Positions 2,730 through 46,217 of a stretch of 47,188 nucleotides of DNA are shown in pieces. Every line of letters starts with the position of its first letter. Position 1 is the first letter of the stretch. The translations under genes were made by a program, and so were the position numbers. The notes beneath the pieces were generated by a model, which worked only from the letters and a program-made list of their open reading frames with translations, made no database searches and was not told the DNA's origin. The DNA is from a virus (taxonomy: Duplodnaviria > Caudoviricetes): IMG/VR virus record IMGVR_UViG_3300007778_000009, positions 1 through 47,188 of that record, one strand, 5' to 3'.

Positions 2730-2746
2730 TAGTGCCATTGCCACTA
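2730..2746. promoter_or_regulatory. 17-bp palindromic operator-like site, copy 1
   Basis: TAGTGCCATTGCCACTA, 1 mismatch to consensus; abuts an extended -10 TGcTAAAAT on the minus strand. Confidence 0.8.
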
Positions 2747-2762
2747 TTTTAGCAGACAATTC

Positions 2763-3095
2763 TTACTTTGTAATATCTTGCGTGTAGATATACCGTCCCG
2801 AAGTGATCGTTGTCACACGACCCGAAAGATCGGTCATCTGCACATCATAGTAATACGTCTTGGGTGTTTGGTCGGCTTGAATCAAACTCGGTGCAAACTG
2901 AACCACACCGTTAGGACCATCCGCTACCGTGCCGGTAAGCGTGTAAAGGTTGTTCTGGTTATCCTCCGGCGCATTGCTGGGGTCCACGGTCATCTTGAAG
3001 GTGAAGCCCGAGATATCGAGTGGCTTACCCTTCGCATCTTTAATATGCAAAATGTCCGCGTAAGTGTCACCGCGCGGTCGCTTGATGTCGTTCAT
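2763..3095 (-). CDS. BppU N-terminal-like (Ig-like) virion protein
   Basis: Start moved to ATG 3095 (GGAGG RBS); RGDT...G.P.DISG...G.V.F...T....YYYDVQ pattern. Confidence 0.65.
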   Translation of the reverse strand: MNDIKRPRGDTYADILHIKDAKGKPLDISGFTFKMTVDPSNAPEDNQNNLYTLTGTVADGPNGVVQFAPSLIQADQTPKTYYYDVQMTDLSGRVTTITSGRYIYTQDITK

Positions 3096-3096
3096 G

Positions 3097-4824
3097 TTAA
3101 TCCTCCAAGAAAAGAGTGTGTACCACAGGGGCCACCACCAAACGAATTGGGGTGTGGTCAACGCGAACGGTAAGCGGGGCGATCTCAAAGTTTACGCGGT
3201 GTACGGTACCGGTTTTAAAGATAAACCGTGTAATGCCGTTACCCGTCGAGGACGCCGGGGCCACCGAGACGCTGCCATTGCCTAAAATAAAGGTCTCAAT
3301 TTTCCAGCCTGACGCCTGTGCCCGAGCCGCAACCGCTGCCCCCGTACCTGTATGCGATAGCTCACCAGATGCAGCCGCCATTGCTTCATCAACAACAGCC
3401 GCACCGACACCACCAATAATGCTCTGTCCGACACCACTGGCCTGCGCTTGACTCGCGACTGCCGTACCGCTGGCGGTATTAGTCACTTCACCCGTCGCAG
3501 AGAGCGTCGCCGCTTGAGCCGCAACCGTTGCCGATCCCGTAATAGTGGCTGCGCCCTGGGACCCGCTTGCAGCAGCAGCCTGAGCCACTACCGAAGCGCT
3601 ACCTGTAACAACACGCTGAGCAACACCGGCAATCAGTGAAATCGAAGCGCTGACAGCGCCCGAGCCTACGTTCTCGCGCTCTGCGCTGCCGGAGATTGTC
3701 GCCGTCTGCGCCTGAACAGCACCACTGCCCACCACGAGACGTTCAGCCGAAGCCGATGTAGTTGCCGTCTGCGCCTGCGCAGCACCGCTACCCACCACAA
3801 GACGCTCAGCCGAAGCCGATATAGCTGCCGTCTGTGCTTGCGCGTCGCCCGAGCCGCTAACCGAGCCGCCTTTCGCACCAACCGATGTCGTCGCCGAGGC
3901 AACGGCAAGGGATGTGCTACCGTCAGACGCGCGGGTACCGACCGTCGTCGTGCCAGTGGGGGCCGACTGCGTAGCGCTGCCTGCATGACCGGCTTCACCC
4001 GTCGCAGCATCACCGGTAACAGCCGACGTCGAAATAGCACCCTGCGCACCCAGCTCACCGCTCGCGTTGGTCGCTGTAGCGGCGCTCTGTGTAATCGCAT
4101 CAGACCGACCGCTGTCGCCCGATGAGGCGACTGCACTACTGGCTGAAGTTGACGTAGCGCCGGAGAGCTCTTCAGCGCCGACACTGCCTGTCGATGTGAC
4201 CGATGAGGCCGCTGAAACGGTCGTTATACCCAAGGCGCTGAATTGACCCGTGGCCAGTGTCGCTGTCGCAGCGGAGGCCGTTGCAGACCCCTCCCCGCCT
4301 TTCTCTTGCGCCGCTGTTGTGCCTATTGCCGTCGAGGTTGACGTCGAGCCAGATAAATCCTCAGCGGCGACCGTGTATGTGCCGGTTAACGCGAAGTAGT
4401 CATAGCGAATAGCACAGACGTCACCCCCTTTCGATTTAGAGTACGACTGTGTGAAGCGCACGACAGCGTTATCCCAATCCGTTTTACTGGCGGATAGACC
4501 CGCTGCCGTAACAGTGATCGCTGTTGCACCGGTGCTTGTATCCGTCGTAGAGGTTACGGAATAGGAACTGGACGCATTCGTGTAAGCGGTTGAATTGGTG
4601 CTATCAAAAATCTGCAGCACAAACGAGTAGGTATCATCGTTGCGCGCTGAGTCAAGGCTGTACTCAACCGTGAAGTTGAGCGCCTGATCGATGCTGCCAA
4701 AATCACTGGGCGTTGACCCAAAAGAACGGGTGATCGACTCGTTAGAGTCTGTTGAGTGCTGCTCATAGGAATTATTTGACGAGGCAAGGTTGCCAGCACC
4801 AACCAGCGTCCCTAAATCAGCCAT
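3097..4824 (-). CDS. Ala/Ser/Gly/Thr-rich repetitive virion appendage protein
   Basis: 575 aa; about 155-aa globular N-terminus followed by low-complexity repeats. Confidence 0.65.
   Translation of the reverse strand: MADLGTLVGAGNLASSNNSYEQHSTDSNESITRSFGSTPSDFGSIDQALNFTVEYSLDSARNDDTYSFVLQIFDSTNSTAYTNASSSYSVTSTTDTSTGATAITVTAAGLSASKTDWDNAVVRFTQSYSKSKGGDVCAIRYDYFALTGTYTVAAEDLSGSTSTSTAIGTTAAQEKGGEGSATASAATATLATGQFSALGITTVSAASSVTSTGSVGAEELSGATSTSASSAVASSGDSGRSDAITQSAATATNASGELGAQGAISTSAVTGDAATGEAGHAGSATQSAPTGTTTVGTRASDGSTSLAVASATTSVGAKGGSVSGSGDAQAQTAAISASAERLVVGSGAAQAQTATTSASAERLVVGSGAVQAQTATISGSAERENVGSGAVSASISLIAGVAQRVVTGSASVVAQAAAASGSQGAATITGSATVAAQAATLSATGEVTNTASGTAVASQAQASGVGQSIIGGVGAAVVDEAMAAASGELSHTGTGAAVAARAQASGWKIETFILGNGSVSVAPASSTGNGITRFIFKTGTVHRVNFEIAPLTVRVDHTPIRLVVAPVVHTLFLED
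3660..3856 (-). repeat. Intragenic 63-bp (21-aa) tandem repeat, about 3 copies
   Basis: GCCGTCTG(C/T)GC recurs at 3701, 3764 and 3827; unit GSGxAQAQTAxxSASAERLVV. Confidence 0.85.
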
Positions 4825-4849
4825 TAATCACCCACTTGCCCGCAGGTGA

Positions 4850-5210: not shown

Positions 5211-5588
5211 TTAAACTGATGCGGTGTAGGTGAAATTCGACACAGAAACCGTATCGCTTGCACCTATGGTCGTCGATGACAGGTTCAAATCTGCGCCACT
5301 CGTTGCAACAGTGCCACGGAAAACCTCCGTCCCGTCACGGTTAACAAACTTAAAGAGCGCAGCTTCACCGCCCGTTGCGTTCGTGTCGTCGCTGATCGCA
5401 TTTGCAGTCGCGACACCGCCAGCCGCATCACCGAACGCAGGATTTGCACACTCCAATGTCGCAACCTCCACGTCTCCACTTGTCATTATGACAAGCTGAC
5501 CGTTCGGGTTTGCTGATCCCCCGTCGATCGCGTCCACTACTGAATCAGCCAACGCGTTGCGCTGCGCTGTTGAGTGTGTAATTGCCAT
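5211..5588 (-). CDS. Small virion structural protein
   Basis: MAITHSTAQRNALAD...ATGG.AA.F...GTV..SGADLNL pattern; GAGG RBS; structural-gene context. Confidence 0.65.
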   Translation of the reverse strand: MAITHSTAQRNALADSVVDAIDGGSANPNGQLVIMTSGDVEVATLECANPAFGDAAGGVATANAISDDTNATGGEAALFKFVNRDGTEVFRGTVATSGADLNLSSTTIGASDTVSVSNFTYTASV

Positions 5589-5636: not shown

Positions 5637-5653
5637 AAGTGGCACTGCCACTA
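5637..5653. promoter_or_regulatory. 17-bp palindromic operator-like site, copy 2
   Basis: AAGTGGCACTGCCACTA; overlaps the stop codon of the giant gene and lies upstream of a TACAAT -10-like box on the minus strand. Confidence 0.8.
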
Positions 5654-8600
5654 ATCGAACAGCGCGTCCCACGCGGCTTTGTTCTGGCTAAAGAACGGGA
5701 TCAGCATGCGAATCTTCTTCTCCATCTCTTGATCAGAGAGCTTACCGTCCTTACCCAAATCAAGCAGCTCATCCAAGCGCGACGTCACCACTGTCGCAGA
5801 CATCAACGGGTTGCGCCCCCAGTCATAAGCCTGCTTCATATTGAACAGAATCTCCAAGGGACCAAAGCCACCCGTCTTGCTCAGGATAAGACGCGCGTAC
5901 TCCGCTTCGTCCATCTTCTCGGTGCGATCCTTCTGCAGAATCCACTCGCGCAGTTCCTGACCAGCCATCGCCAAGGGCAGTAGCAGTGCCGCCATCATAA
6001 GACCTGGCACCATCGAGTAGGCCGCAGCGCTGATCACGCCCGCGCCCTCGCCTCGCTTGGCATCCCAACGCCCTTTCATGGCACGCCACGTGCCCGCAAT
6101 AATCACGTTGAAGTAGCTGTAGAAGAACTGTTTAAGGTGCCATGCCAACTTCATATACGGGTTGTTACCCCACGCTGTTGCTTCAAAGCGTGAAGGTCGA
6201 ACCACTGACTCGTAGACAAACTGGTTAATCGCCTGATCGACAGAGATAACCCCCTGCTGGCCTGCGCGTAACCAACGATCAGCATCCTCAAAGGAGAGAT
6301 TTAACTGTTTAAGATCAGCCAAGCCCTTCTCATCGCCTGCTTTAACCGCCTGTACGGAACGCGCGATGTAGCGCTTCGCAAGGCCCACCGAGATCGCACG
6401 CGCTGCCCGCATGAGCATCTGCTGACCGTTGAACTTGAACAGGTAGTAGTTGAGCTTATGCTGCGCCGGTGACTGATATTCTGGACCCATCGACTCCATC
6501 ACCGCGAGCTCCGCCATGTCACCCATCACGATCCCAAGATCAGTCGCCTGCTGGTAGTTCTCTTTAAACTCGCCCAACACTTGCAGCATATCAACGAATG
6601 TCGTGCGCCCTGAGCCGCGAACCGCACCGCCTGCCAATTCAGGAATCGATGCCACACCCGAAAACGCCAACACGGTGTAGTTCAGGAAGGTCATTATCCA
6701 GTTCTGCGTATTACGCAGCGCGTTAGGCATTGAGGTGCCATCCAGACCCATCGCGTTACGCACTAACTTGCGCGCTTCAATGGCCGCTTCCGCCCCTTTC
6801 TCTGTGCGAATCCGGTCAAAATGCTCATGTAACTTAGCGTTAGGCGAGTAGAGCTTGCCGTCTTTCTCAAGCCCCATGCTTTCGGCCAACTTCTGCGCCT
6901 CGTCAACGGAACCAATCGTCGAAAGATCAACATGCGCCTGTGCCAACATGCGCAAGCGCGCGGAGTCTAGGTACTCAACCTCCACAAACCCGCCAAACTT
7001 CTCTTCCCAAGCCGTGCGTTTCGCCGCCGTTTGCGCGTAGTGGTGAAGAATCGCGTTGGGGTTATCGAGCAAGAAGCCTTCAGCAATCGCATCCTTGTAG
7101 AATGCCTTGTTCGCAAGAAGGCGATCCACATTGGCATGCTGGCTCACGGGCTTACCAGGGCTCACCGAAAAATCGTTCACGCCGTCGCTGTAGAGGATCG
7201 AATCAACGACAATCCTAACCTGCTCTGCGTTCACATCCTCAGCGTTAAAATGCTTCAGAATCAGCGCTTCAAAATCTGAACGACGCGCTGCAATGACCTC
7301 ATGTGAGAACGCTTCCGGTACAAAGTCCTCGCGTGGATGGTAGGGGTGGCGTTTACGCATATCCGCGTCCATCACATCAATGAGACGACGTAACTTCTGA
7401 CCCAACGGAGATTTGCGCCCCGCACGCAGATCATCCCACGCGCGTTTTAGCTGCGCTTCACCCAACCCTTTGGTCGCCGCTTCAATCTTGCCCGCCCAGC
7501 GATCATTCAAGAAATACGAGATTTGCTGCCAAGCTTTCGTGCCTTGTGCAGTCCGTGAGTACTGGTAGAGATCAGCACGTAGCGCCTCATCGATCTGGTT
7601 CAGACGGGCGACAACCGAGCGGTACATACCACTAAAACGGTTATTGAAGACAGCGCCTTTGCTCTTAGCAAGCAACTGACGCGCTTCGCGCTTGGGATCA
7701 AAGTTATGTACTTTATCCTGTACCAGTGAGCGGCGTGTGGTGCGCTCGCCGCGACGGTACTTCATCAGGATACGATCAAAGAACGCCATCGCGTCCTCAT
7801 TAGCACGGTGCTCAAGCAGCTTCTGCACCTCCAGCCAGAGGCGGCTGATCAAGCGCATGATGCGGTTGAATAGGCTGTTGACCTCGTAGCTGCTGACACG
7901 GCCCATCTCAAACCCCGGAGTATCGACCGAGCCATCCATCATCCAATGTGCGAACTGGTCAGCCATAAACTCGCTAAAGTCGGTCGCCCCGTCCTGCTCC
8001 ATCGCCTCGCGCAAGATCGTCTCAGTGCGCTCGCTCATCAGCGGAACGTGGGTTTCGAAGAATGCGTGGCCCAGCTCGTGAGCAAAGGTCGTAACCTGCT
8101 CCACCAGTGAGCCGCTGTCCGGCATCACGATGACACCGTAATCCCCCGCCGAGTAATACGCGGCTGCTTTAGGATCACGCCCCGCTAGGTTCTCAGAGAG
8201 CATTTGACGCGCCTTCGCGCTCATCTTAGTGGTATTCAGGTCACGGCGACGCAGGACCACCAGCGGTTGGGTAAAGCCCAATGAGTTACGGATCGAGGTA
8301 ATCATGCCAAAGATCGCAGCATCAACGGTCTTCGAACCGGTGCCTACAGACGTCACATTATCGGAGTCATAGGGATTAAAGTTCTCAAGCCCCAACGCTT
8401 CGGTGATCTGTGGCATCGGCAGTGGGTTGAACTTACGCGAGGCTATATCCGCGCGCAGCTGCTCCGCTTCACGCTCTTGCTGTGCCAGTTGGTCGCGGTA
8501 ATCAGAACCATCATCATTCGAACGGCGCACGTTATCGCCCACATCCAACACAGACTCAACCACAGCACCTGAACGATCCGCTGTCGCGGCATCGGCCTCT

Positions 8601-11600
8601 ACCTGACGTTGTTCTGCTGTCTTAACGTCGCGTTGCGCTGCCGTGCGCTGATCGCGCTCCCAGACCTCATTACCCTCTTCATCAACCGCGACACCTTCGT
8701 CCTGATAAAACTTCCCTGGTACCTCTTGGTTATCCATATTCCGAACATCAAACCCTACGATGTCCGAATCGCGCTCGACCTCCTCAATAGCCATGCGGTT
8801 GCCTGCCTCATCCCACGCGCCCGCTGCCTTAGCGGCCTGACGTGCTTGAATGAGCCATGTCAGCGTGCGGGTTGCTTTAGCTGCCTTCTTATAGGCCGCT
8901 GCACGCTCTTTCTCTTTGTTGATTACTACTTCGGAGGTATGGTTGACCAGCGGCCAATTCAGGGCGTGGTAGAACCAGTTGCTTAAGTGTGGGTCGATAG
9001 TCCCACCCACCTGAACAAACCGTGCCTGTTTAGGGTCTTTGCGCTCATCCGTATTCTCCTCGATGACCGCACCCGCCTCTTCCCACATCACCAGTAGGTC
9101 GGCTTCAAGCGTCTCAATATTTTCGCGCACAGCATCCAAATCCCAATGCTGCAAATCGATGTTCACATCGAGGTTATATTGCGCTGCTTCACGCGCCTCA
9201 CCGTAGGTCACAGCATGACCGGCTTTATCCACCCCAATGACCAAGCTGTCATCGAGGAATGAACGATCAGGCGTCACCGGTGCATTCGCTGCTTCGGCCT
9301 GAGCAATCAGTTCATTAAGACCGGCTTCAAACGCAAAGAACATACGGCCCCATTCGCCGCCAAATTCCTCTTCGGTGTATTCACGCCCTAAGGCTTGGAT
9401 GGAAATCGCATCATAGCCACCCGTCAACGGACGCGGCGACTCACTGCCCAATACATTCAACATGCGCGGGCTAATAAGGCCGAACAGAACATTCTTACCC
9501 TTATGCTGCTGGGTATTACTCACCGCTGTCGCAGAACCTAGTTTAGAGCGCTGATTCTCCAGATTACCGGCACCGGCATGCACCACTTCATTGCCATCGA
9601 AAAAAATGGCTGATCCACGCATCGCGGCTTGTTGTTTTTGACGCTTAAAGGTCGCAGGTTCGTCTGTCGCGATCGGAGCCCATGAAACACCCGTCGCATT
9701 AGCCGGTTTCTCACCTTGCGCATCGCCGTAGTACTTCTCGCGCACGGTCTCATAAATATCGTAGAACTTACCCTCGACGCTGACAGTAAACTCAATGACA
9801 CCGGCCTGAGACGCTTTGGCAAACAGGTTTTTAGCGTTAACCGTCCCGTCATTCGCAAAATTATCAATCTGCGTAGCAACGTGAGATTGAATATCACCGC
9901 GCATCTGCTGGTTGGTCGAGGCCTCTTGCTCCATGCGCGTCGCTACGTCGTGATAGACCTCAAAACTCATGGCCTCAGGTACCTTAACCTTACGGTCAGC
10001 CACCATATCGTCATACGTCGCCCTCAGTGACTGCTCGATCGCTGGGCCTGCGTTAATGTCATATCGCTGCCCAATCGCTGAAAGTACCGCGCTATCAAAG
10101 ATAAACTGACGAATCCACGGAAACGCTTTTTTGAACTGGGCATCTGATAATTCGCTATCACCGAGTAAGGGACGGTTGTGCTGCGCCGTGCGCAACTCCT
10201 CTCGAATACGTGTCTGCACGTCGAGGATCAACTGACGACGGTTATACCCTACATCCGAAAACGGGACGCCAAGCTCTTTTGCAGCCGCCTTGAGGTCCGC
10301 ATTAGACAACATCTCTTTCGTTATTGAACTCGGCTTACGGTTGAGCTTCAGATCGTGCAGGTCAGTCAGCGTATTCGCTGACTCCGCATCGACACGGAAC
10401 AGTACCGGTGCCCACTGCTTAGCCACGTCCAGCGCAACCTCTGACGCATCACCAAAGCGAGTCATCACGGATTGCTCTGCCGCTTGAGCTTCCCGCTCGC
10501 GCTGCTCACGAAGAAGGCGATCTTGCTCAGTGTTAGACTCGCGCACCGGCGTAGATGGACGCGTTTTCTGCGTCTGATTGCCCGTGTTGTAAAGCGTAGC
10601 CATAATGTTCGCCAAACTCTGACGGGTCGAAGTGTCTTTCGACAACGGCACGAACACACCGTATTGGTTCGCAATATCGATCAGTTGCTTATCCGAAATA
10701 TCTGAAGCGGCAATATCCTCGGGAGACATGCGCCGATTCTGCGCTCCGCCCACGTACACACCAGCGCCTTTCAGGTTACGCGCTGTCTGAACACGATCAA
10801 TCTTCAGTGATTTCGTTATCTCAGCGTCCGCTGTTCCCACAGTCGTAACACCTAAGTCGCGCAGCGCATCGGCTACCGCTTTAAAGCTCACCTTGCCCCG
10901 CGTGAGGTCCGCCAACACCTGTTCACGAGGGCGCAGGGTCGTGTTCTCCTCATCCACAAACAAGGAAGCGGTACCGCGCTCGTCCTCAGAAACCTGTTCT
11001 TGCTCTTGAGTTTGTTCGACCTCCACGCGATAGCCTGGGCGCTGATCAACAGTAGTCTCACTGACCGGCGCTGCCTGACGTTCACGCTGTACGTCCAAGG
11101 CGGACATAACCTCAACTGTATAGTCCGGCGGTACCTCTTGAGCTAAAGACTCGGCGCGAGTAGTCGGGTCTGAACTGGCTTCAACATGCGCTAACGTCCC
11201 ATCCGGTGAACGGGCAACGACCACTTGATCACCCTGTACGTCGTCAAGATTCTCGTCATACCCCGCATCTTGCTGACGTTCTTGATTATCCGCGGTCTCT
11301 TTGACTTTGTTCGGGTCTAGCGTCGCCTGCCAGTTGCCGTCCTCTTGCTCTGTGAAGATGACGCTAATGCCCGACTTCTCAGCCTGATCACGTGCGAATG
11401 CAACATCGTCCTTGTGGAAATAATCAGTATCGTAATCAGAATCGGGATTCACCAGCAGATCGATGTTAGCCCGCGTAATCTCCTCACCACTGGGCGTGAA
11501 CTCAGTGGGGGCTTTCTCGCCACGAACGGTCTGAACAACACCGCCCGCGCCGCCAAGCGAACCACCGACAATCGCACCGCGCAGGCCCGCGTCGATAACG

Positions 11601-13003: not shown

Positions 13004-13020
13004 CAGTAGCAATGCCACTA
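13004..13020. promoter_or_regulatory. 17-bp palindromic operator-like site, copy 3
   Basis: CAGTAGCAATGCCACTA, intergenic. Confidence 0.75.
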
Positions 13021-19348: not shown

Positions 19349-19377
19349 ATAGTAGCAGTGCCATTAAAAAAGCGCAA
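19349..19377 (-). promoter_or_regulatory. Sigma70-like capsid promoter overlapped by operator copy 4 (19350-19366)
   Basis: TTGCGC-17 bp-TACTAT with TGn extension; operator TAGTAGCAGTGCCATTA. Confidence 0.75.
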
Positions 19378-22613: not shown

Positions 22614-22630
22614 AAGTGTCATTGCTACTA
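22614..22630. promoter_or_regulatory. 17-bp palindromic operator-like site, copy 5
   Basis: AAGTGTCATTGCTACTA between terL and portal; abuts TAAAAT on the minus strand. Confidence 0.7.
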
Positions 22631-25064: not shown

Positions 25065-25093
25065 AATATAGACATTGCCACTACTTAGCGCAA
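25065..25093 (-). promoter_or_regulatory. Sigma70-like promoter overlapped by operator copy 6 (25067-25083)
   Basis: TTGCGC-17 bp-TATATT; operator reads TAGTGGCAATGTCTATA on the minus strand. Confidence 0.7.
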
Positions 25094-29422: not shown

Positions 29423-29439
29423 CTTAGCCACTGCCACTA
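29423..29439. promoter_or_regulatory. Degenerate operator copy 7
   Basis: CTTAGCCACTGCCACTA (right half perfect), intergenic. Confidence 0.5.
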
Positions 29440-32202: not shown

Positions 32203-32219
32203 TAGTGGCAATGACACTA
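32203..32219. promoter_or_regulatory. 17-bp palindromic operator-like site, copy 8
   Basis: TAGTGGCAATGACACTA directly after a TAAAGT -10-like hexamer. Confidence 0.8.
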
Positions 32220-36718: not shown

Positions 36719-36760
36719 TAGTAGCAATGCCATTGCTTCCTGTGGCAATGGTGCTATATT
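36719..36760 (+). promoter_or_regulatory. Sigma70-like promoter with tandem operator copies 9 and 10
   Basis: TAGTAGCAATGCCATTG (36719-36735) and CTGTGGCAATGGTGCTA (36740-36756) overlap TTGCTT-16 bp-TATATT (TGn extended -10). Confidence 0.7.
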
Positions 36761-36866: not shown

Positions 36867-37061
36867 ATGTCCGACTGCGAAACCTGCGAACGTCTCAAAG
36901 AGATGTATCGGCGCGAAGTTGAAAACGCCATGCGTATTCGAAACCAACTTGAGCAGCTACACGCCAAGTACATCGACACCATTGAGCTGTACGTCAGCAC
37001 CGCCCAAGAACTCGCAGAACTGCAGGCAGACACCTATGCGCGCAACGAAAAGGTTATTTGA
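36867..37061 (+). CDS. Small coiled-coil protein with N-terminal CxxC
   Basis: MSDCETCERLKEMYRRE; AGGA RBS. Confidence 0.6.
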   Translation: MSDCETCERLKEMYRREVENAMRIRNQLEQLHAKYIDTIELYVSTAQELAELQADTYARNEKVI

Positions 37062-37371
37062 TTGTCTCACAGACGATGATCTCAGACTCGTCCTTGAATT
37101 GCGTAAAGCGGGACTCACCTACCGCTGCATCGCAGAGAAATTTGACGTTGCACCCCACCAGATTCGCCACTTTTGCCGCAACGCAGGCCGAGAACACCTC
37201 TTTCCTGCGCAGAAGGAGACGCTAAGCCAACTGCCGACCGTAGCCGTCACAGAGCTGCGCAACTGCTACGCCGACATGGATGCAACGACGGTTGTTACTG
37301 TTAACTACCAACCTCGATTTGTTTTGGTGCCAATTGAGTTATATGAGGTGCCCCATGAAACTGCTCGATAA
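37036..37371 (+). CDS. HTH + Phd/YefM-like domain protein, putative transcription regulator
   Basis: LTDDDLRLVLELRKAGLTYRCIAEKFDVAPHQIRHF (HTH); TVAVTELRN...VVTVNYQPRFVLVPIELYE (Phd/YefM-like). Confidence 0.7.
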   Translation: MRATKRLFDCLTDDDLRLVLELRKAGLTYRCIAEKFDVAPHQIRHFCRNAGREHLFPAQKETLSQLPTVAVTELRNCYADMDATTVVTVNYQPRFVLVPIELYEVPHETAR

Positions 37372-39262
37372 TCACTACACCCTGCTGACGCTGGACTTTG
37401 AAACCTATTATGGTCCCAAGTACTCCCTCAGTCTGCAGAGTATGAACACCTTTAAATACGTCGCGGATGAGCAGTTCAAGCTGCACTCTGTCGGCGTCAA
37501 GATCGATGACGAAGCCACGCAGTACTATGACTTCGACGACCCAGCACAGCTGAGCGAGTTCAAAGCGCTCCTCGATGCACTGCCTGAGCAGACTGCACTG
37601 CTGTGTCACAACACCGCCTTTGATGGCTTTATCCTGCACTACCACTTTAACTGGCACCCCGCGCTGTACCTCGATACCGCGTCCATGAGTCGCGGTTTTT
37701 TTGTCGGTCAAAAAGCCAACCTCAAACACCTGTCGATTCGCCTCTTTCCGAATAACCCTGAGCTGCGCAAACTCGACGACTTAGCCAAGACTTTTGGGCA
37801 CCGTGTTGTACCGGATGAAGTCAAACCGGCGTTCGAGGCCTACTGTATTCGCGACGTTGAGATGACCAAGGCCTGTTTCGATGTGATGATCGAGCACTAC
37901 CCCGATGATGAGTTGCGCCTGATCGACTGGACGCTGCGCTGCATGTGTGAACCGACGCTGACCGTGGATGCTGAACTCGTGCAGGAAGAGATCGACTATC
38001 AAGTCGCGCTCAAACGCGACGCCATCGACGCCTCTGGCATCAGTGAGACAATACTACGCAGCGATAAACAGTTCGCTGAATGGCTCGACGACAATGGGGT
38101 CATCTATGAGATGAAACGCAACCCTAAAGACGAGCTCATCCCTGCCCTGTCACAGTCTGATTGGGGCTGGCAACGCCTCGTTGCACACTACCCTGAACAC
38201 GACGCCGTGTTCAAAGCCCGCAAGCACGCCAAATCCTCGATCCAAGAGTCACGTGCGCGCTGGTTTAAGGACGTGGCCCGTTGGAATCACAACCGCATGC
38301 CCGTGCCACTCAAGTACTACGGCGCAGACACAGGGCGTTGGAGCGGCAGTGAGAAGCTGAACCTTCAGAACCTACCACGCATTAGCCACGACCCCAACAG
38401 TGGCCGTCTACGCCGCAGCCTGCGCGCCCCCGAGGGCGAAGTGATCATCGTGCGTGACCTCTCCAACATCGAGGGGCGCATGCTCGCGTGGGAAGCCAAC
38501 GAAGGCTACCTCCTCGACCTCTTTAAAAACGACGGTTGTCCGTACCTGTTCATGGCCGAGGCGATCTACAACGCGCCCCACGGCAGCTTTACCAAACAGA
38601 ATAATGGCGGTGAGCGCAACGTCGGCAAAGTCGCCACGCTGGGCTTGGGCTATGGCATGGGTCACAAGAAGTTCTGGGTGACAATGAATACCGGTCCAAT
38701 GGGGATGGACCCCATACCCACGAGTGAGCAAGACGCGCAGCGCATCGTCAACATCTACCGCTCGACCAACGCCAACATCACGCGCTACTGGCAGGCGTGT
38801 AACGATGCCATTGAGATGATGGCCACGCTCGGTGACAACGAGAGCCGCAGCTTTGGTCCGCTTGAGCTGGTCCGCAATGCAGCGATTTTGCCCAACGGCA
38901 TGGCCCTGCAGTACCCAGACCTGACCGGTACGCCCAACCAGTGGAACGGCTACGACTTCACCTTTGGCAACGGTAAAAAAGTCTACGGCGGTCTGCTGTG
39001 CGAAAACATCACCCAAGCCCTGGCACGCATCGTGATCTCCGAGCAGTTGCTGCGCATTCAAGCGGAGCTCGACGCCAATTATGGCCGTGATGTCGCGCGC
39101 ATTGTCCACATGGTTCACGATGAATTGCTCGTGGTTGCACCCCAAGCACTGGGCGATGAGATCTACACCCTCATGGGTGACGTGATGAGCCAACCGCCCG
39201 CATGGTGCAGCGATTTGCCGCTCAAATCCGAGGGCGGATTGGCCGTTGAATACAGTAAATAG
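37355..39262 (+). CDS. polA: DNA polymerase family A with 3'-5' exonuclease
   Basis: Exo LDFETY, HNTAFD, YCIRDV; motif A DLSNIEGR, motif B RNVGKVATLGLGYG, motif C VHDEL; GAGGT RBS. Confidence 0.95.
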   Translation: MKLLDNHYTLLTLDFETYYGPKYSLSLQSMNTFKYVADEQFKLHSVGVKIDDEATQYYDFDDPAQLSEFKALLDALPEQTALLCHNTAFDGFILHYHFNWHPALYLDTASMSRGFFVGQKANLKHLSIRLFPNNPELRKLDDLAKTFGHRVVPDEVKPAFEAYCIRDVEMTKACFDVMIEHYPDDELRLIDWTLRCMCEPTLTVDAELVQEEIDYQVALKRDAIDASGISETILRSDKQFAEWLDDNGVIYEMKRNPKDELIPALSQSDWGWQRLVAHYPEHDAVFKARKHAKSSIQESRARWFKDVARWNHNRMPVPLKYYGADTGRWSGSEKLNLQNLPRISHDPNSGRLRRSLRAPEGEVIIVRDLSNIEGRMLAWEANEGYLLDLFKNDGCPYLFMAEAIYNAPHGSFTKQNNGGERNVGKVATLGLGYGMGHKKFWVTMNTGPMGMDPIPTSEQDAQRIVNIYRSTNANITRYWQACNDAIEMMATLGDNESRSFGPLELVRNAAILPNGMALQYPDLTGTPNQWNGYDFTFGNGKKVYGGLLCENITQALARIVISEQLLRIQAELDANYGRDVARIVHMVHDELLVVAPQALGDEIYTLMGDVMSQPPAWCSDLPLKSEGGLAVEYSK

Positions 39263-39272
39263 CGCCCATTTT

Positions 39273-39289
39273 TAGTGGCATAGCTACTA
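39273..39289. promoter_or_regulatory. 17-bp palindromic operator-like site, copy 11
   Basis: TAGTGGCATAGCTACTA overlapping TACTAT/TATACT -10-like boxes. Confidence 0.75.
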
Positions 39290-39304
39290 TACTAAGGAGA
39301 CCTA

Positions 39305-39772
39305 ATGACGAATTTTGAGAAGTCATCGGAGTTTAACACCCTCTTCGGTAACGAGCGCGGCGATCCCAGCAATGTTGATTGGGACGCAGCGCGTGCTCAA
39401 TTTGCTTTGATCCTCGAAGAGTTCACGGAACTGAGCCTTGCGATTGGCGAGCACAACATCAAAGAGGTCAGGGACGGTGCCGCAGACCTGCTCGAAACAA
39501 CATATGGCCTGTTACACCGTCTAGGATTCGACGCTAACAAGGATTACGACGCTGTGTACCGCTCTAATATGTCCAAATTCTGTGAGTACCGATCAACCGC
39601 TGAAGCCACACGCAACCGGTATCTAATGATGGGTGTCAGCTGCTATATCAAACAGATCGATAAGTACTATGCCGTCATCTCTAAGTACGACCAGAAGGAC
39701 GACAAAGGCAAGACCTACGCCGCCGGTAAACTCCTTAAATCCATTGAATACAAAGAGCCCGTCTTCGAATGA
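39305..39772 (+). CDS. MazG-like NTP pyrophosphohydrolase
   Basis: LILEEFTEL...EVRDGAADL...VYRSNMSK...GKLLKS. Confidence 0.85.
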   Translation: MTNFEKSSEFNTLFGNERGDPSNVDWDAARAQFALILEEFTELSLAIGEHNIKEVRDGAADLLETTYGLLHRLGFDANKDYDAVYRSNMSKFCEYRSTAEATRNRYLMMGVSCYIKQIDKYYAVISKYDQKDDKGKTYAAGKLLKSIEYKEPVFE

Positions 39773-39972
39773 GTGACGCGTCAGACCCATCTGATAGCGC
39801 CTCTGCGCTTGAAGCACTCTTCCTCAAACACGCGCTTGAGAGCCGCAAACCCAGTGGCCCTCGCGCCGTGGGCCGCTGCCTCTTTTGCGAAGATGACCTA
39901 CCAGCGGAACGTCGCTGGTGTGACCTTGAATGCAAACGCCTTTGGGAGCGACAAAATGCACTTAAATATTGA
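39769..39972 (+). CDS. TraR/DksA-like zinc-finger protein
   Basis: DPSDSA (DxxDxA) and CLFC...WCDLEC. Confidence 0.65.
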   Translation: MSDASDPSDSASALEALFLKHALESRKPSGPRAVGRCLFCEDDLPAERRWCDLECKRLWERQNALKY

Positions 39973-40135
39973 AGAACTACGGATATTCAAATCGGCACTG
40001 GCCCAATACTCAGCACTCTCTGACGAGCGTGCGCAACGCGCAGGCTACTTGATGACCCGTGTTCAAAAGGAGATCGACGACCTCAACTCGCTACAGGATT
40101 TCGAAAGCGACTGTGGCGACGCCTGTAAACTCTAA
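39956..40135 (+). CDS. Small protein with C-terminal DCGDACKL di-cysteine tail
   Basis: MHLNIEEL start, GGGAG RBS, 59 aa. Confidence 0.6.
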   Translation: MHLNIEELRIFKSALAQYSALSDERAQRAGYLMTRVQKEIDDLNSLQDFESDCGDACKL

Positions 40136-40153
40136 GCACTGTGGGAGGGGCTT

Positions 40154-42694
40154 ATGAAGATTCCATTAACCCTGCTATCCGCAGGTAAAGCACGACTCGC
40201 AAAAGAGTTCACGCCACAAGGCTCACAAGCCTATCCGCTGGTCTCTAAACTCACGTCAACAACCTATATGACCGATGCCACCGCACAGGGCCTTCGCGAC
40301 CGTTTAGCGCTGTACCAACAGCATGCGAAAGTCGGTGACTGTTGCCTCAAAGGTCAGCTCACACGTGAGATTAAAAATGAGTCACGCGCGGGACTGTGCG
40401 AAAAAGATGCCCCGACTCACACCCTGATTCTGGATATCGACGATTACCCGATATCCACACCGATTAGCACTCCCTGCACCGCGCAGGATGTTAAAAACGC
40501 CGCCGAGATGATCGTCGCTAACCTGCCCTCCTCCCTCAGATCGGTTAGTTACATCGCCCACGCGTCGTCCAGCTTCGGTCGTAAGCCGAACTCGATCTCA
40601 CTCCATATCGAGTTTCTGCTATCACACGGCGTCGCACCCTTTGCACTCAAAGAGTGGCTGAGACACCTCAACCTCTCCATTGATGCATTCGCGGATAAGC
40701 TGAGTCTGAACCCAGCGGGCTACACGCTGCACTGGCTGATTGACCCTTCAGTCGCAGACAACTCCAAGCTTATCTACATCGCCACCCCCAAGTTCAAAGG
40801 CGTTCCCAACCCCTTTGATAATGACGATGAACGTTGGGTGCTCGTAGAAAAAACCGAAGCCATTGCCAACGTCCTCGCGGATGTAGGGAGTGCGACCCCT
40901 GCTGCCATCAAAGCCAAAGAGCAGAAGATCATCGCCGCGCAGCGCAAAGCGATGGGCTTACCCAAAGGCACCATGAAGACCGCCCGCATGTCGGTGGTCG
41001 GCTTTGACGGGAAGGTCAACGTACAGACCAACCCCAACGAGATGCACATGCAGCTCGTAAGCATCAACAACGATTACGCTCGCTTCAATATCAACCACGG
41101 CGACTCAAACGCGTACTATGTGCGCCTGACCAACCCTGAGATTGTCTGGAACCACAAGGGCGAGCCACCGTTCCTGTTCTCGGTTGCCAACCCTGAGTAT
41201 TACGAGCAGTTCGTGGCCGAACACGCCGCCGATATTCAGCTGTATCGACCGGTTGAGCCGATGGTCTTTCGCGACATGCTCTCGGATCGCCACTACACCG
41301 CGCTCTATAACCCCAAAGAGGATATCTTTGAGGACATCGATCTGGGCCGCCAAACCTGCACCAGTTTAACGGTCGCCGCGCGCGCCCACTTGGACGATTT
41401 CATGGCCGATTACGGCTCCACCGTACCGCCCGTGATCCCTCAGTATGCTGTGACCTTTAACCCGCAGACCTCGACCTGTTTCGATAAAGACAAGCGCTTT
41501 GTGAACCGCTTCTCAGCGCCGACACTCATGCGAGACCAGCCGAGCATTGCCGAGGAGTTCCAAGGCATCACCTACGACATGGACAAGCGCGGGGAGAACG
41601 ATATCTCCGCCTACGTCACAGCGCTGGCACCCAATGCCAACAAGCTGATCCAGCATGTCTTGGGTAACGATGCCGAGTGTTACGAGCACTTCATCAACTG
41701 GCTGGCGTACGCCTTCCAGTACCGCTCCGTCTCCAATACGGCGTGGGTGCTCTCCGGTCTCCCAGGATCGGGTAAAGGCCTGATGTTCAACACCATCATT
41801 GTCGGACTCTGGGGTACGCAGTACACCAGCATGAAGAAGATGACCAACCTTGAAGACAACTTCAACGGCGGGTTAGAGACACAGTTGATGGTGGCCTTCG
41901 ATGAGATTCACGTCTCCTCCGGCAAAAACCCTGAACGTCTGCTCGATGACATCAAACATATGATCTCTGAAGAGCGCACGACCATCCGTGCGATGCGCCA
42001 AGATCAGCGCAGCGAAGAGGTGTTCTATAACTTCTTCTGTTTCTCCAACCACCGGGATGCAATGCGTATTGAACCGGGGGATCGACGCTTCAATGTCGCC
42101 CCCTACCAAGCCGTGCCGCTCAACCGGATTGTGTCGGACACCTACGACTTCGTGGAGAAGATCGAGGCGGAGCTGCCGCTGCTCGCGGCTTTCCTCGCAA
42201 GCTTCGACGTCAACCGTCGCGCCGCCCGTGTGTGTATCGAGAACGACGCAAAAGCCGCAATGCGACTGAGCGCGCAGACCGCCTTCGAGCGTCTGTTCCA
42301 CGCCATCAAGTTTGGCGAGCTGGACTACTTCATTGAGTACGTGCTGCTCTACGTTCTGCCGGTTGATGCCGAGTATTCGACCATCACCAAAATGCAGGCC
42401 GCGCAGCGCATCGTCAAAGCCTGGTACGAAGACGCTGCTAAAGGACAACCGACCCTCATCGACCTTGAAGAGATGCGTTCAGTCTACAGCGCCCTCGCCC
42501 CAGACCGCAGCATCACACCGCTTAAATGGGGGTCGATGGTGCGCAAAAACGGCATTGAAGTGGTGCGTCGAACCACGCCACGCGGCAAGGTGAACTGTAC
42601 CGAAACGCAATGGTTCGTCACCGAGCACACCGATAAACAAGACATTGCGCAGATTAAGCACGCTATCAGTGCGATTGCTGCAAGGACACACTAA
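40154..42694 (+). CDS. Primase-helicase (AEP-like N-terminus, SF3/D5-like helicase)
   Basis: LILDIDD...SSSFG....SLHIEF (primase); GLPGSGKG, AFDE, FSNH, DRRFNV (SF3). Confidence 0.85.
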   Translation: MKIPLTLLSAGKARLAKEFTPQGSQAYPLVSKLTSTTYMTDATAQGLRDRLALYQQHAKVGDCCLKGQLTREIKNESRAGLCEKDAPTHTLILDIDDYPISTPISTPCTAQDVKNAAEMIVANLPSSLRSVSYIAHASSSFGRKPNSISLHIEFLLSHGVAPFALKEWLRHLNLSIDAFADKLSLNPAGYTLHWLIDPSVADNSKLIYIATPKFKGVPNPFDNDDERWVLVEKTEAIANVLADVGSATPAAIKAKEQKIIAAQRKAMGLPKGTMKTARMSVVGFDGKVNVQTNPNEMHMQLVSINNDYARFNINHGDSNAYYVRLTNPEIVWNHKGEPPFLFSVANPEYYEQFVAEHAADIQLYRPVEPMVFRDMLSDRHYTALYNPKEDIFEDIDLGRQTCTSLTVAARAHLDDFMADYGSTVPPVIPQYAVTFNPQTSTCFDKDKRFVNRFSAPTLMRDQPSIAEEFQGITYDMDKRGENDISAYVTALAPNANKLIQHVLGNDAECYEHFINWLAYAFQYRSVSNTAWVLSGLPGSGKGLMFNTIIVGLWGTQYTSMKKMTNLEDNFNGGLETQLMVAFDEIHVSSGKNPERLLDDIKHMISEERTTIRAMRQDQRSEEVFYNFFCFSNHRDAMRIEPGDRRFNVAPYQAVPLNRIVSDTYDFVEKIEAELPLLAAFLASFDVNRRAARVCIENDAKAAMRLSAQTAFERLFHAIKFGELDYFIEYVLLYVLPVDAEYSTITKMQAAQRIVKAWYEDAAKGQPTLIDLEEMRSVYSALAPDRSITPLKWGSMVRKNGIEVVRRTTPRGKVNCTETQWFVTEHTDKQDIAQIKHAISAIAARTH

Positions 42695-43545
42695 TGGCTA
42701 AGATGATGTTTAACCCCAGTGCTGTAAACACAGCACCTTTGAACCCTAAGGAGCCGGTCACTGAAGACCGGCCTCTTTTCGACCCCGCCGCTGCCCAAGC
42801 GCAGTACGAGGCCGAAAAACCCGAAGACCTTCACGACAAACCCCTCGGCCCCCTCAAACGCTGGTCCTTTTCAGGACTCTCCGAGTTTGAACAGTGCGCC
42901 TATAAAACCTATCTAAAGAAGATCGAGGGGGCACAAGAGCCGTCAGGCCCTGCGGCCGCACGCGGCTCTAAACTGCACGAGTCCATCGAGAACTACATCC
43001 AAGGGTTCGTCGATGAGCTTGACCCCGAGGTTAAAAAGCACCGTGATCTGATCGATCGCCTACGCGACGCCTATGTCGAGGGGAGAGTGACCGTCGAAGA
43101 GGATTGGGGCTATACGCGCGATTGGGTCCCGACCGGTTGGGAGGATGACGACACTTGGGCGCGTCTAAAGCTGGATGCTATCGAATTTGAAAATGAGACC
43201 TCGTGCAGTATCTACGACTGGAAATCCGGTCGCAAATTCGGCAACGAGGTCAAGCACGCGCAGCAGCTCCTAGTATACGCCATTGGCACGTTTAAACGCT
43301 TCCCAGAGGTTGAATTTATTTACGGCGCGATGGTCTACATCGACAAAGGCGAAATTCTTGAGGGCAAGTACGTGCGCAGCGACCTTGACCTTTTCCTACC
43401 GCGCATCGAACGACGCGCATTAACCATGACAACTGCCACCGAGTTTCCACCGTCACCGAGCAAACACAACTGCAAGTGGTGTCGCCTGAAGGAGCCGCTT
43501 GAGGGTGAAGAGGAAGCACGCTGTCAGTGGGGAGTACTCGAATGA
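42694..43545 (+). CDS. Cas4-like PD-(D/E)XK exonuclease
   Basis: WSFS....FEQC, RG..LH..IE, KLDA, DWKSG, QL.VYA, CKWC...C. Confidence 0.85.
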   Translation: MAKMMFNPSAVNTAPLNPKEPVTEDRPLFDPAAAQAQYEAEKPEDLHDKPLGPLKRWSFSGLSEFEQCAYKTYLKKIEGAQEPSGPAAARGSKLHESIENYIQGFVDELDPEVKKHRDLIDRLRDAYVEGRVTVEEDWGYTRDWVPTGWEDDDTWARLKLDAIEFENETSCSIYDWKSGRKFGNEVKHAQQLLVYAIGTFKRFPEVEFIYGAMVYIDKGEILEGKYVRSDLDLFLPRIERRALTMTTATEFPPSPSKHNCKWCRLKEPLEGEEEARCQWGVLE

Positions 43546-43844
43546 AATTCTCAATCCAACCCGTAACCGAAGCGGTTAATCCAACCCCCAGCATCCCAAC
43601 ACAAAACCAAGAGGGACCCGAGACCCGACTCTATCGCGTGCCAATCACTCGCAACGTCTATTACGACGAGAGCGGCTACGTCGAAGTTGAAGCCGTCAGC
43701 GAGGAAGACGCCCGCGAGCGCATTCTAGCCTTCGATTGGAATGAACTTGAACACGCCTGTGAATGGGACGGCGACCCTAGCTATAGCGACTCGGGTGATG
43801 CTGACTTCGAAAACATCTATTGGAACGAAATCGAAGAGGTGTAA
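43542..43844 (+). CDS. Acidic hypothetical protein
   Basis: MKFSIQPV start; VEVEAVSEEDARE motif; strongly acidic C-terminal half. Confidence 0.6.
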   Translation: MKFSIQPVTEAVNPTPSIPTQNQEGPETRLYRVPITRNVYYDESGYVEVEAVSEEDARERILAFDWNELEHACEWDGDPSYSDSGDADFENIYWNEIEEV

Positions 43845-43845
43845 C

Positions 43846-45225
43846 ATGATTCCTGCCATGTACCAGCATCAGTCTCACACGGCTGATTTTATCGCCAACA
43901 ACCCTAATCGTTGCGCCTTTATTACCAGTGACACAGGCACCGGCAAGACCCGCTCCGTGCTGGAGGGCTATAAGCAGCTCAAGGCCAAGGGCTACGGCAA
44001 AATGCTGGTACTGGCACCGCTCTCAATTCTCAAACCGGCGTGGGGCGATGATATCGAACGCTGGACACCGGAGCTGAGCTACGGCATCAGTACCGCAGGC
44101 TCAGATAAGAAACGCCTTGCAGCGTTTGAGTCCGGTGCCGAGATCGTCATCACAAACCACGACGCGGTGAAATGGCTCGTGCGTAACCCCGCGCTGCTAG
44201 ACGGCTTCGACATTCTCGCCATCGATGAGTCCACGGCCTTTAAACACCGCACCTCAGAGCGCAGCCGCGCGATCCGTGACCTCGCGCAGCAATTCAAATA
44301 CCGCATCCTAATGACCGGTACCCCCAACTCCAACGGGGTCTGTGACGTCTGGCACCAAGCGATGCTGCTCGATAATGGCGTGCGCTTAGGCCGCATGTTC
44401 TCGGGCTTTCGCATGCAAGTCTGTCACCCCGTCCAAGTGGGACCGACCGCGCAGATGGTGAAATGGGTTGATAAAGACGGTGCCGAAGAGATGGTGGCTG
44501 AACGCATGCGTGACATCACCATCCGCTACAAGTTCGAAGACTGTATCGATATCCCTGAGAACGTGCAGCGCACGCTCAAAGTGGAGCTGCCGCGTAAACT
44601 GATGGCGCAGTACAAGCAGCTTGAGCACGAAGCCATCTTGATGATGAACGATGCGACGATCAACGCGATTCATGCCGGTGCCAAAGCTCAAAAACTGCTG
44701 CAACTGTGCTCCGGGGCTGTCTACGACGAGGACCGGATTGCCCAGCTCTTTAACACCGACCGCTATGAACTCGTGATTCAACTGGTGTTGGAGCGCGACC
44801 ACTCTGTCGTCGCGTTCAACTGGACCCATCAGCGTGATCAACTCGTCGCCCTGGCACAGAAACACAAGATAGCCTATGGCGTGATCGACGGCTCTACCCC
44901 CGTGAACGAGCGGACCCGTGTCGTTGCGGCCTTCCAAGCCGGTGAACTGCAAGTCATATTCGCGCATCCACAATCTGCAGGCCACGGTCTGACCCTGACG
45001 CGCGGACGCGCCACAATTTGGGCCTCACCGACCTACAACGCGGAGTGGTTCCAACAGTTCAACGCACGTATATATCGCGCGGGTCAAACCCAACAAACCG
45101 AAACCCTAATGATTGCTGCTGCCGATACCAAAGAAGAGGAAGTCTACGAAATCCTTCAAGGGAAACGTGAGCGCATGTTCAACCTACTGGGCGTCTTCGC
45201 CCACACCACGGAGGCAACTGCATGA
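43846..45225 (+). CDS. SNF2-like (SF2) DNA helicase
   Basis: YQHQ, DTGTGKT, IDES, MTGTP, SAGHGLTL, QFNARIYRAGQ. Confidence 0.9.
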   Translation: MIPAMYQHQSHTADFIANNPNRCAFITSDTGTGKTRSVLEGYKQLKAKGYGKMLVLAPLSILKPAWGDDIERWTPELSYGISTAGSDKKRLAAFESGAEIVITNHDAVKWLVRNPALLDGFDILAIDESTAFKHRTSERSRAIRDLAQQFKYRILMTGTPNSNGVCDVWHQAMLLDNGVRLGRMFSGFRMQVCHPVQVGPTAQMVKWVDKDGAEEMVAERMRDITIRYKFEDCIDIPENVQRTLKVELPRKLMAQYKQLEHEAILMMNDATINAIHAGAKAQKLLQLCSGAVYDEDRIAQLFNTDRYELVIQLVLERDHSVVAFNWTHQRDQLVALAQKHKIAYGVIDGSTPVNERTRVVAAFQAGELQVIFAHPQSAGHGLTLTRGRATIWASPTYNAEWFQQFNARIYRAGQTQQTETLMIAAADTKEEEVYEILQGKRERMFNLLGVFAHTTEATA

Positions 45226-45455
45226 ATGACGATAAACAACCCGCCACCAAACTCGACCATGTGCTGTTCTCCACCTCAGCCCATGTCTATTACACAGGCG
45301 ATCCAGAGATGCGCCACGAAGCCGTTCATTACTGCGCCACCCTGCTCGACCTACTCATCTTTGATGTCAGACACCTGACACCCAAAGGGAAACAGCTCAT
45401 CAAAGAGCTACCCACGGCACTGATCGAAGCCGATCAGAACCAATCTGTTCACTAA
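45222..45455 (+). CDS. Hypothetical protein
   Basis: GGAGG RBS, ATGA overlap. Confidence 0.6.
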   Translation: MNDDKQPATKLDHVLFSTSAHVYYTGDPEMRHEAVHYCATLLDLLIFDVRHLTPKGKQLIKELPTALIEADQNQSVH

Positions 45456-45469
45456 CGAGGATAAGACCT

Positions 45470-45823
45470 ATGACCGCTAATCAAGAGATTGATGTTAACG
45501 GGGCCACTCAGATCGACATTGCCGATGTGATGCCCTGCCCGATAGACACCTTAAAAGAGGCTGTACGCGAACTCGAACGCGACTACAAAGCCGTGACACG
45601 CTATCAACTGGCCGCTAACGACATGCGGGCCACCATCGCAGATCTGCGCAACACCGTGACCGACGCCACAAACGCCGGTGACGATGAGCGTGCGTTTGAA
45701 GCGATGAAGGCCTTGCGCGCCGAGTCGCTGCGCATGAGCAAAGCGCTCGAACGTGCAGATGACGCTGAGTTCAATATTGAAAATAAACGCAAAGCCGTTG
45801 CAACGGCACTGGAGGCACTATGA
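45470..45823 (+). CDS. Coiled-coil hypothetical protein
   Basis: GAGGA RBS; helical heptads. Confidence 0.6.
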   Translation: MTANQEIDVNGATQIDIADVMPCPIDTLKEAVRELERDYKAVTRYQLAANDMRATIADLRNTVTDATNAGDDERAFEAMKALRAESLRMSKALERADDAEFNIENKRKAVATALEAL

Positions 45824-46203
45824 GTGACGTAAAAATGTCCCTTGGACAGCTCGCCCGTTTGGCAGCCGATATCCGTGAGGATAAACGCAAGCTCGACAAA
45901 GAGAGCAAAGAGATGGGCGCGCGCCTCGATGAGATCAAAGGACTCATCTACGCGCAGCTCGATGAACAGGGTGTGGACCGTACCGCTGTCGATGGGATAT
46001 CGATCAGCAAGTCTGACACCGTGGTCCCAACCGTGACCGATTGGGAAAAAGTTGAAGAGTACATCACGCAGACCAACCAACTGCACCTGTACCAACGACG
46101 ACTCTCCGCAACGCTCTGGCGTGAGATGATGGAGAGCGGCGAACTGGTCCCAGGTACTGAACCCTTCACCAAACGTGACGTCAATTTGCGGGTCACAAAA
46201 TAG
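45820..46203 (+). CDS. Conserved phage replication-region protein
   Basis: Coiled coil followed by V.DW....YI......L.QRRLS......GELVPG pattern. Confidence 0.65.
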   Translation: MSDVKMSLGQLARLAADIREDKRKLDKESKEMGARLDEIKGLIYAQLDEQGVDRTAVDGISISKSDTVVPTVTDWEKVEEYITQTNQLHLYQRRLSATLWREMMESGELVPGTEPFTKRDVNLRVTK

Positions 46204-46217
46204 TGTCATTGCCACTA
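46201..46217. promoter_or_regulatory. 17-bp palindromic operator-like site, copy 12
   Basis: TAGTGTCATTGCCACTA upstream of an extended -10 TGaTACTAT (46221-46229). Confidence 0.8.

Follow-up and report, generated by a model that had tools for sequence, protein, structure and literature searches.

Control of a temperate phage by one repressor acting at many dispersed operators is a known arrangement, exemplified by C1 of phage P1, by the Cluster A mycobacteriophages and, through annotation, by phage epsilon15, which limits the surprise of a further case. The operators of P1 C1 are asymmetric. A total of 22 C1 operators are dispersed in the P1 plasmid prophage (PMC8546580), and Cluster A phages possess 20 to 30 sites in both genome arms, with a motif covarying with the repressor and with an integrase or parABS at one locus (PMC6550527). 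The stretch analysed here, referred to as the window, was the whole of IMGVR_UViG_3300007778_000009 (47,188 nt), in which a 17-bp palindrome, TAGTGGCA-N-TGCCACTA, an 8-1-8 dyad, recurs in intergenic gaps. Very probably, a lambda-CI-like repressor encoded by the phage uses these palindromes as dispersed operators and would thereby keep the promoters of replication, packaging and virion genes silent in what is predicted to be a plasmid prophage. As read from the sequences, the distinct features of this case are a lambda-type CI in a dispersed role, a division into three specificity classes, and the location of operators next to a plasmid origin.

The predicted system resembles that of P1 in its plasmid prophage, in one repressor serving many dispersed sites, and in release by an antirepressor (a prediction here), but P1 late genes are repressed through the activator Lpa, whereas the sites described here stand directly before capsid, portal, terminase, and fibre genes (PMC8546580). 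It also differs from P1 in its lambda-CI homologue, its symmetric sites, and its phage genome, which at about 58-60 kb bears genes of podophage type, and no equivalent of P1 Coi, Lxc, or Ant was identified here. Covariation of motif and repressor, a locus alternating between integrase and plasmid genes, and repressor-less isolates (such as D29 and MissWhite, which resemble the relative G006 described below) are shared with Cluster A; the stoperators of that cluster, however, are asymmetric, oriented, and mostly off promoters, whereas the present sites are dyads, all intergenic and linked to promoters, and the plasmid module here is of the Rep3/iteron/resolvase type, unlike parABS (PMC6550527). 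Cluster O mycobacteriophages likewise repeat a 17-bp dyad genome-wide, but their dyads lie mostly off promoters and have no known binder or lysogeny (PMC4351075), whereas a candidate cognate repressor and lysogeny modules accompany the motif studied here. The Salmonella phage epsilon15 (NC_004775) is also a podophage with a temperate lifestyle in a gammaproteobacterium, and its record annotates 7 palindromic repressor sites across the terminase, head, tailspike, and immunity regions; its sites are known as annotations, however, its motif TTACC-N5-GGTAA is unrelated, its virion and replication modules are different, and its prophage integrates. Podovirus-type tailed phage-plasmids have been described as few (PMC7969092), and no description of this lineage or motif was found in the literature searched, which consisted mostly of open papers without supplements.

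The likeness to lambda CI (NC_001416; PDB 1LMB and 3BDN) comprises a homologous N-terminal domain, the overall fold, 17-bp 8-1-8 operators starting with TA, and tandem sites near the repressor promoter. Unlike lambda, there are about 18 dispersed sites versus two triplets, and cI lies at the end of the replication arm, co-directional with it, following a nuclease-like gene on the same strand, with no divergent cro beside it. The initial annotation had contrasted the palindromes with the lambda-type local switch; this contrast stands for the layout and falls for the protein and the site geometry, both of which are lambda-like.

Palindromic sites and predicted promoter positions in the window

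The 12 copies listed earlier were all recovered at exactly the positions given. Scored by mismatches to the motif, 10 had 1 to 3 mismatches and two (29423 and 36740) were degenerate with 5 each, as had been described; no mismatch-free copy was present within the window. Matches with up to 3 mismatches numbered 10, compared with a mean of 0.15 and a maximum of 1 in 100 shuffles, and a de novo search of the window (7- or 8-base arms, gaps of 0 to 7) returned the TAGTGGCA-type motif as the top palindrome family. All 12 copies were centred in non-coding DNA, which made up 5.5% of the window in our own gene map (binomial p 7e-16), with a 3-base overlap of a stop codon at sites 5637 and 46201. A matrix trained on the relative G001 alone had ten listed sites in its 17 best hits. 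It gave site 36740 a score of 9.0 and site 29423 a score of 4.7, and the latter site is doubtful because this score is at background level. The same matrix ranked highly an intragenic site absent from the earlier list (5978..5994, 4 mismatches, score 12.2), a possible extra site of uncertain status inside the giant virion gene.

On the minus-strand left arm, the site at 2730..2746 (1 mismatch) precedes a Gp80-like fibre gene (2297-2707, -), and an extended -10, TG-N-TAAAAT (2746-2751, minus strand), terminates on its first base. The site at 5637..5653 (1 mismatch) precedes a virion gene (5211-5588, -) and overlaps the stop of the 2436-aa virion protein gene, while that at 13004..13020 (2 mismatches) precedes this giant virion (probable ejection) protein gene itself (5651-12961, -). 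The major capsid gene (18093-19229, -) is preceded by a site at 19350..19366 (2 mismatches) lying between TTGCGC and TACTAT, which are separated by a 17-base spacer, and the portal gene (20498-22591, -) by one at 22614..22630 (3 mismatches), on the first base of which a TAAAAT (22630-22635, -) terminates. The last site of this arm, 25067..25083 (3 mismatches), lies before a probable small terminase gene (about 24458-24976, -) and the large terminase gene. On the right arm, the doubtful site at 29423..29439, with one perfect half, precedes 29465-29944 (+), and a site at 32203..32219 (1 mismatch), with TAAAGT (32198-32203) terminating on its first base, precedes 32229-32486 and a DUF669/SSB-like gene. 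A tandem pair with 3 and 5 mismatches, 21 bases apart (36719..36756), covers TTGCTT-16-TATATT with an extended TG and stands before small genes leading into DNA polymerase A (37280-39262, +). The site at 39273..39289 (2 mismatches), whose final TA begins a TATACT, precedes the run of MazG-like, DksA-like zinc finger, primase, exonuclease, and helicase genes, and that at 46201..46217 (1 mismatch) precedes a Pam3-gp34-like (probable SSB) gene (46284-46973, +). PHROGs and Pfam agreed with the gene labels (fibre, virion, capsid, portal, terminase, polymerase, MazG-like/primase, and SSB-like).

Overlap with sigma70-like boxes, also proposed initially, held in a loose sense, since 9 of the 12 sites had a TAnnnT -10-like hexamer at the tested offsets, but a strict promoter, defined as a -10-like hexamer plus an extended TG or a -35 match, was found at only 4 of the 12. 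The strict definition was applied to 62 sites from six records, oriented by the downstream gene, with sites and orientations chosen by hand; a promoter overlapped 29 of these, versus 6.7 +/- 2.3 (maximum 14) in 1000 shuffles of the flanks with the site fixed, and 13 in the antisense orientation. Sites inside genes or without an assigned gene were left out, namely G001 35088 and 53105, four sites of G006, G007 37431, seven of G014, and six of L130 (these records are described below). Two geometries predominated: the -10 ended on the first T of the operator in 14 cases (3.6 in shuffles), or began within its last five bases in 15 (at one offset, 6.0 in shuffles). A third offset gave more antisense than sense cases (29 versus 20) and is therefore not directional. 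Positions over the predicted -10 or start fit a repressor-like action.

The CI-like repressor and the plasmid module beyond the window

No repressor or integrase match was found within the 47-kb window record. PHROGs and Pfam searches of its 66 open reading frames (ORFs) for a regulator gave a single weak HTH_23 match, and this protein was ruled out as the binder by its absence from G001. The region past the end of the window was found in L130, part of a 58,301-base metagenome contig, which is 99.99% identical to window positions 36284-47188. There, the last stretch of the window (46974..47188, +) continues into a nuclease-like gene (L130:10982-11389, +), followed, about 520 bases past the window end, by the gene for a CI-like repressor of 237 aa with HTH_3/HTH_31 matches (L130:11429-12142, +). 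A plasmid module on the opposite strand then converges on these genes. It encodes a ParA-like ATPase with a weak MipZ match (L130:12121-12759, -), a small ParA partner of 87 aa with a weak RHH lead (22% of one cluster) (L130:12731-12994, -), a Rep3 initiator, RepA, about 35% identical to its best plasmid matches (L130:13129-13872, -), and a serine resolvase (L130:14399-15025, -) with an inverted repeat upstream at 15019-15080. Upstream of repA are 22-base iterons, four in tandem (L130:14014-14101) and a fifth at 14160, as well as three 11-base AT-rich repeats.

L130 adds six palindromes to those listed, one before the repressor gene and five beside the iterons, giving a total of 18 with the window, and all six were among the top 17 hits of the G001-trained matrix in 57 kb. 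Those near the repressor gene lie at L130:11314, 115 bases before the repressor start, and at 11334; the five others lie within 300 bases at 14102, 14245, 14306, 14348, and 14388. The sites upstream of the repressor gene are tandem copies 18-20 bases apart in L130 and G014. Together with a likely promoter, the repressor sites lie within the nuclease-like gene that precedes cI, at its 3' end (L130:11290-11389; L029:15590-15683; L265:11364-11400). Between L130:14103 and 14363 there are three 34-base units, each an operator with a conserved 17-base flank, one of them inverted, with a fourth copy of the flank at 14188; these units are possibly a partition or host-factor site. Promoters predicted in the cI/replicon region by a generic scan were no more numerous than expected by chance (8 versus 6.4). 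The ParA partner, RepA, and the resolvase were ruled out as binders of the palindromes, as G001, G007, and G014 lack them.

One element carries both phage virion genes and genes for plasmid replication and partition, and is a predicted phage-plasmid in the sense of PMC7969092. A single contig spans SSB to repA, joining SSB, cI, parA, and repA, in 3 of 3 sequencing runs, two of which are possibly the source of the window, and breaks occur only in the iterons. The repressor and RepA were each recorded on 6 contigs, the longest of 59,878 bases. No end overlap was found in the longer contig, of which all but about 1.5 kb was examined.

A profile of six homologues of the repressor had the lambda repressor as its best PDB relative (E 9e-17), and the structure predicted for the full length (pLDDT 83.6, five sequences) matched a lambda/186 hybrid, full-length lambda CI, and LexA. 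All six lambda operators are 17 bases long, with A at position 2 in 12 of 12 half-sites; in five motif sets of the present phages, position 2 was A in 34/36, 26/28, 20/22, 26/26, and 44/44 halves. Two glutamines, which we take to be the residues reading the position-2 base in lambda-type repressors, were invariant in 19 of 19 homologues. The C-terminal domain has an S24/LexA-type fold, in which, in an alignment to lambda CI at 18-23% identity read by eye for 6 proteins, the catalytic Lys was replaced in 6 of 6, the Ser in 5 of 6, and the Ala of Ala-Gly in 6 of 6. This Ser-Lys dyad and Ala-Gly bond are presumably the residues for RecA-stimulated self-cleavage. With the catalytic lysine replaced, self-cleavage is unlikely by sequence and the repressor is predicted to be non-cleavable, so that release probably needs an antirepressor rather than RecA-driven cleavage. 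Non-cleaved repressors freed by antirepressors are common in Salmonella prophages (PMC7380047). A scan for SOS boxes detected a single one, in G014, and none in five other sequences; with no convincing SOS box, no LexA-controlled antirepressor was located.

In the mechanism proposed, a CI dimer would occupy each 8-1-8 site, one monomer per half, and would block host sigma70 polymerase by covering the start site where the -10 ends on the first T of the operator or, alternatively, by covering the spacer and the -10 where the last TA or TACTA of the operator forms the -10. In place of a lambda-style cascade from two operators, about a dozen promoters would be repressed directly; autoregulation of cI would come from the sites within the 3' end of the nuclease gene before it, and an antirepressor, for which no candidate was identified, would release the repressor. 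The window phage would persist as an iteron plasmid. The five iteron-side sites may, speculatively, tie the plasmid module to the repressor, or could instead belong to a partition site. It is possible, though we hold it rather doubtful, that these five operators make plasmid maintenance depend on bound repressor, one non-cleavable CI switching between plasmid and lytic replication; bound repressor might then shield the origin from late-arm read-through, or license RepA or partition, and the replicon would have been wired into the regulon when an iteron plasmid replicon replaced the integrase.

Motif variation in relatives and rival explanations

Sites of this kind are conserved in relatives, which supports the early proposal that one dimeric factor has sites at promoters of replication and morphogenesis genes alike. 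G001 (58.6 kb, capsid 81% identical) possesses 11 sites with up to 3 mismatches. Ten of these lie in gaps, and many correspond in position to those of the window. The G001 repressor shares 46% identity, and the same recognition helix, QQVSVSQY, is paired with the TAGTGGCA motif in the window phage and in G001. A prophage of Vreelandella massiliensis (G007/G015) has the helix KQGAVAQY and its own motif, TATWCGCA-N-TGCGWATA, at 13 sites with up to 3 mismatches, including sites before primase, SSB, and cI, and no TAGTGGCA site. The Motiliproteus coralliicola prophage G014 has the helix NQSSISQM and the motif TATTAGCA-N-TGCTAATA. The motif changes with the recognition helix of the phage-encoded repressor in three helix/motif classes among four genomes, with G006 as an unexplained exception, and a site just upstream of the repressor gene was found in 4 of 4 repressor-bearing genomes (scores 13.6-16.8). 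Prophage maintenance modules are also present, namely Rep3, iterons, ParA-like ATPase, and resolvase in L130, and an integrase in G001 and G014; the plasmid module (L130:12121-15080) occupies the slot where these two have excisionase and integrase, with genes for an excisionase-like protein and a tyrosine integrase coming after the repressor gene in G001. The initial suggestion that the sites keep a lysogen silent is supported as the most likely role.

The repressor family has at least 16 full-length matches, with G001 as the sole match in searches of viral contigs. Thirteen homologues (P0012, P0014-P0016, and P0018-P0026) share a KQG[AS][AV]AQY helix, which seems from these sequences to be the commonest immunity type of the family. 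Neither a repressor match nor such a motif family was found in KPP25, phiA008, or G010, whose top palindromes are GC-rich and look like coding repeats, and the G009/G010/G013 group (capsid 58%) gave 1-2 motif matches and no repressor match. A single-sequence search with the SSB gave 23 distant loci, and across L042-L129 more than one motif match was found in two close relatives only. An exact-pattern scan gave 20 loci, mostly with single matches, and the examined parts of G003 and G005 matched none of the window proteins. A scan with TAGYAGCA, the half-site form of G006, gave 120 loci, and screening of the 119 new ones yielded just two close relatives with multiple sites, L168 and L199. Two operator copies (L269:12364-12530) precede a zinc-ribbon/metallophosphoesterase gene (12533-13756) where the Motiliproteus prophage presumably has its left end.

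Several points weigh against the palindromes being dispersed CI operators. The covariation rests on three classes of related phages and is not independent of ancestry. In G006, a fragment of 22 kb whose polymerase is 61% identical, 8 sites are well preserved with a symmetric change to TAGYAGCA. Its nuclease gene is followed by a small unrelated gene and then the tail arm, and neither a repressor nor an integrase or replicon is present there; the site that would precede the absent cI has decayed (score about 2) while the remaining ones are kept. A deletion scar between operators was looked for in G006, and the decayed site alone was found; the pattern fits a repressor-less derivative, a relocated gene, or a second binder. 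In 15 kb of G011, which probably represents the opposite arm of a comparable phage, 3 sites and no repressor were found. No integrase was found at either end examined of G007, which may be a defective prophage, and neither a Cro nor an antirepressor was found. In the window, no intergenic site lies ahead of the first rightward genes (25708-28400), and the few strict promoters at its sites and the manual choice of sites in the promoter test count on the same side.

Some of these points would favour another lytic-cycle phage protein, a Cro-like repressor or an activator, as the main or an additional reader of the sites, with the CI-like gene merely covarying. G006 and G011 retain symmetric sites without a repressor in the usual slot, sites stand ahead of late genes as expected of an activator, and other candidates exist in the HTH gene at 37027-37371 (also in G006), a multi-HTH gene common to G001 and G011, and the gene at 36398-36703 (in the window, G001, and G006). 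However, the HTH gene has no match in G001, the multi-HTH gene none in the window, and no DNA-binding family was found for 36398-36703; of the predicted DNA-binding proteins tested, the CI-like protein alone is present in all of the window phage, G001, G007, and G014. Location of the sites on the -10 or start rather than upstream of the -35 also fits repression, and we regard another phage reader as improbable.

Less probable still is a host transcription factor tying phage expression to host state, as the initial annotation had entertained, even though phages with sites for a host regulator, CtrA, are reported to exist (PMC9437464). In Motiliproteus coralliicola (4.2 Mb), 17 of 19 genome-wide matches to the cognate motif lie inside the prophage of about 62 kb, 14 of them outside the stretch used to derive the motif, and in V. 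massiliensis (3.4 Mb) all 9 matches lie inside the prophage from which the motif was derived. The window motif occurs once in each of these hosts, below the reversed-pattern controls (9 and 3). No set of sites at host chromosomal promoters emerged in these two hosts of related prophages. Confinement of the cognate motifs almost entirely to the prophage argues against a host regulator, as does the change of the motif among related phages in step with the phage repressor helix, and the proposed coupling to the host is unsupported. We give equally little credence to the palindromes being promoter sequence or DNA/RNA hairpins retained as parts of the -10. Although the motif ends supply -10 bases at many sites, which could explain retention in G006, the inner bases are not promoter determinants (C7 is invariant in 152 of 156 or more halves across the sets, and G6 nearly so), mismatches are independent between the arms about a 1-base centre, and identical -10 geometries occur with three different inner sequences.

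If the palindromes are CI operators as proposed, the lambda repressor fold, known from a textbook local switch, is probably usable in the manner of P1 at a dozen or more promoters, late ones included. KPP25-like podophages would then have temperate relatives that integrate or bear a plasmid replicon, while the named members gave no repressor match. One such prophage is carried by a cultured strain, Motiliproteus coralliicola C34, which makes direct testing possible. The matched repressor/operator sets may serve specificity studies or as orthogonal repressors, the three helix/operator pairs offering a ready specificity series for lambda-type repressors.

Gene content and additional observations

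Judged by its genes, the window, at 47 kb, represents part of a KPP25-like podophage genome. Its minus-strand left arm carries the genes for terminase, a P22-like portal, a PF13252 capsid, adaptors, the 2436-aa virion protein, and Gp80/Gp77-like fibre proteins, and its right arm those for polymerase A, a MazG-like protein, primase, exonuclease, an SNF2 helicase, and the Pam3-gp34-like protein. The nearest named phages were KPP25 and phiR18, with identities to KPP25 of 51% for the capsid, 41% for the portal, and 35% for the polymerase. Almost no DNA match to KPP25 was detected and only the layout is related, which places the window outside the genus Kochitakasuvirus.

The 2436-aa virion protein (5651-12961) bears an N-terminal staphylococcal-nuclease-like domain, and a fibre gene has an internal repeat with 63-base spacing at 3698-3843. 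In the early region, an M28/M20-like peptidase gene (35023-36387) is present in G001, G007, and G014 too. The 101-aa protein of 36398-36703, common to the window, G001, and G006, directly precedes the tandem operator, and an atlas search gave no assignment. The small HTH gene at 37027-37371, before the DNA polymerase, has a C-terminus that is Phd/YefM-like by eye, and G001 has the latter part only (L029:1121-1291). G001 also encodes a CsrA homologue (L028:17829-18053) and a multi-HTH protein (L028:12623-13207), and its polymerase and helicase (L029:1492-4368 and 10979-13465) contain large insertions resembling inteins. Judged from the translations, a reverse-transcriptase-like ORF in G006 (L066:17377-18345) and, in G001, a short remnant next to a probable target gene (L027:6934-8935) suggest diversity-generating retroelements.

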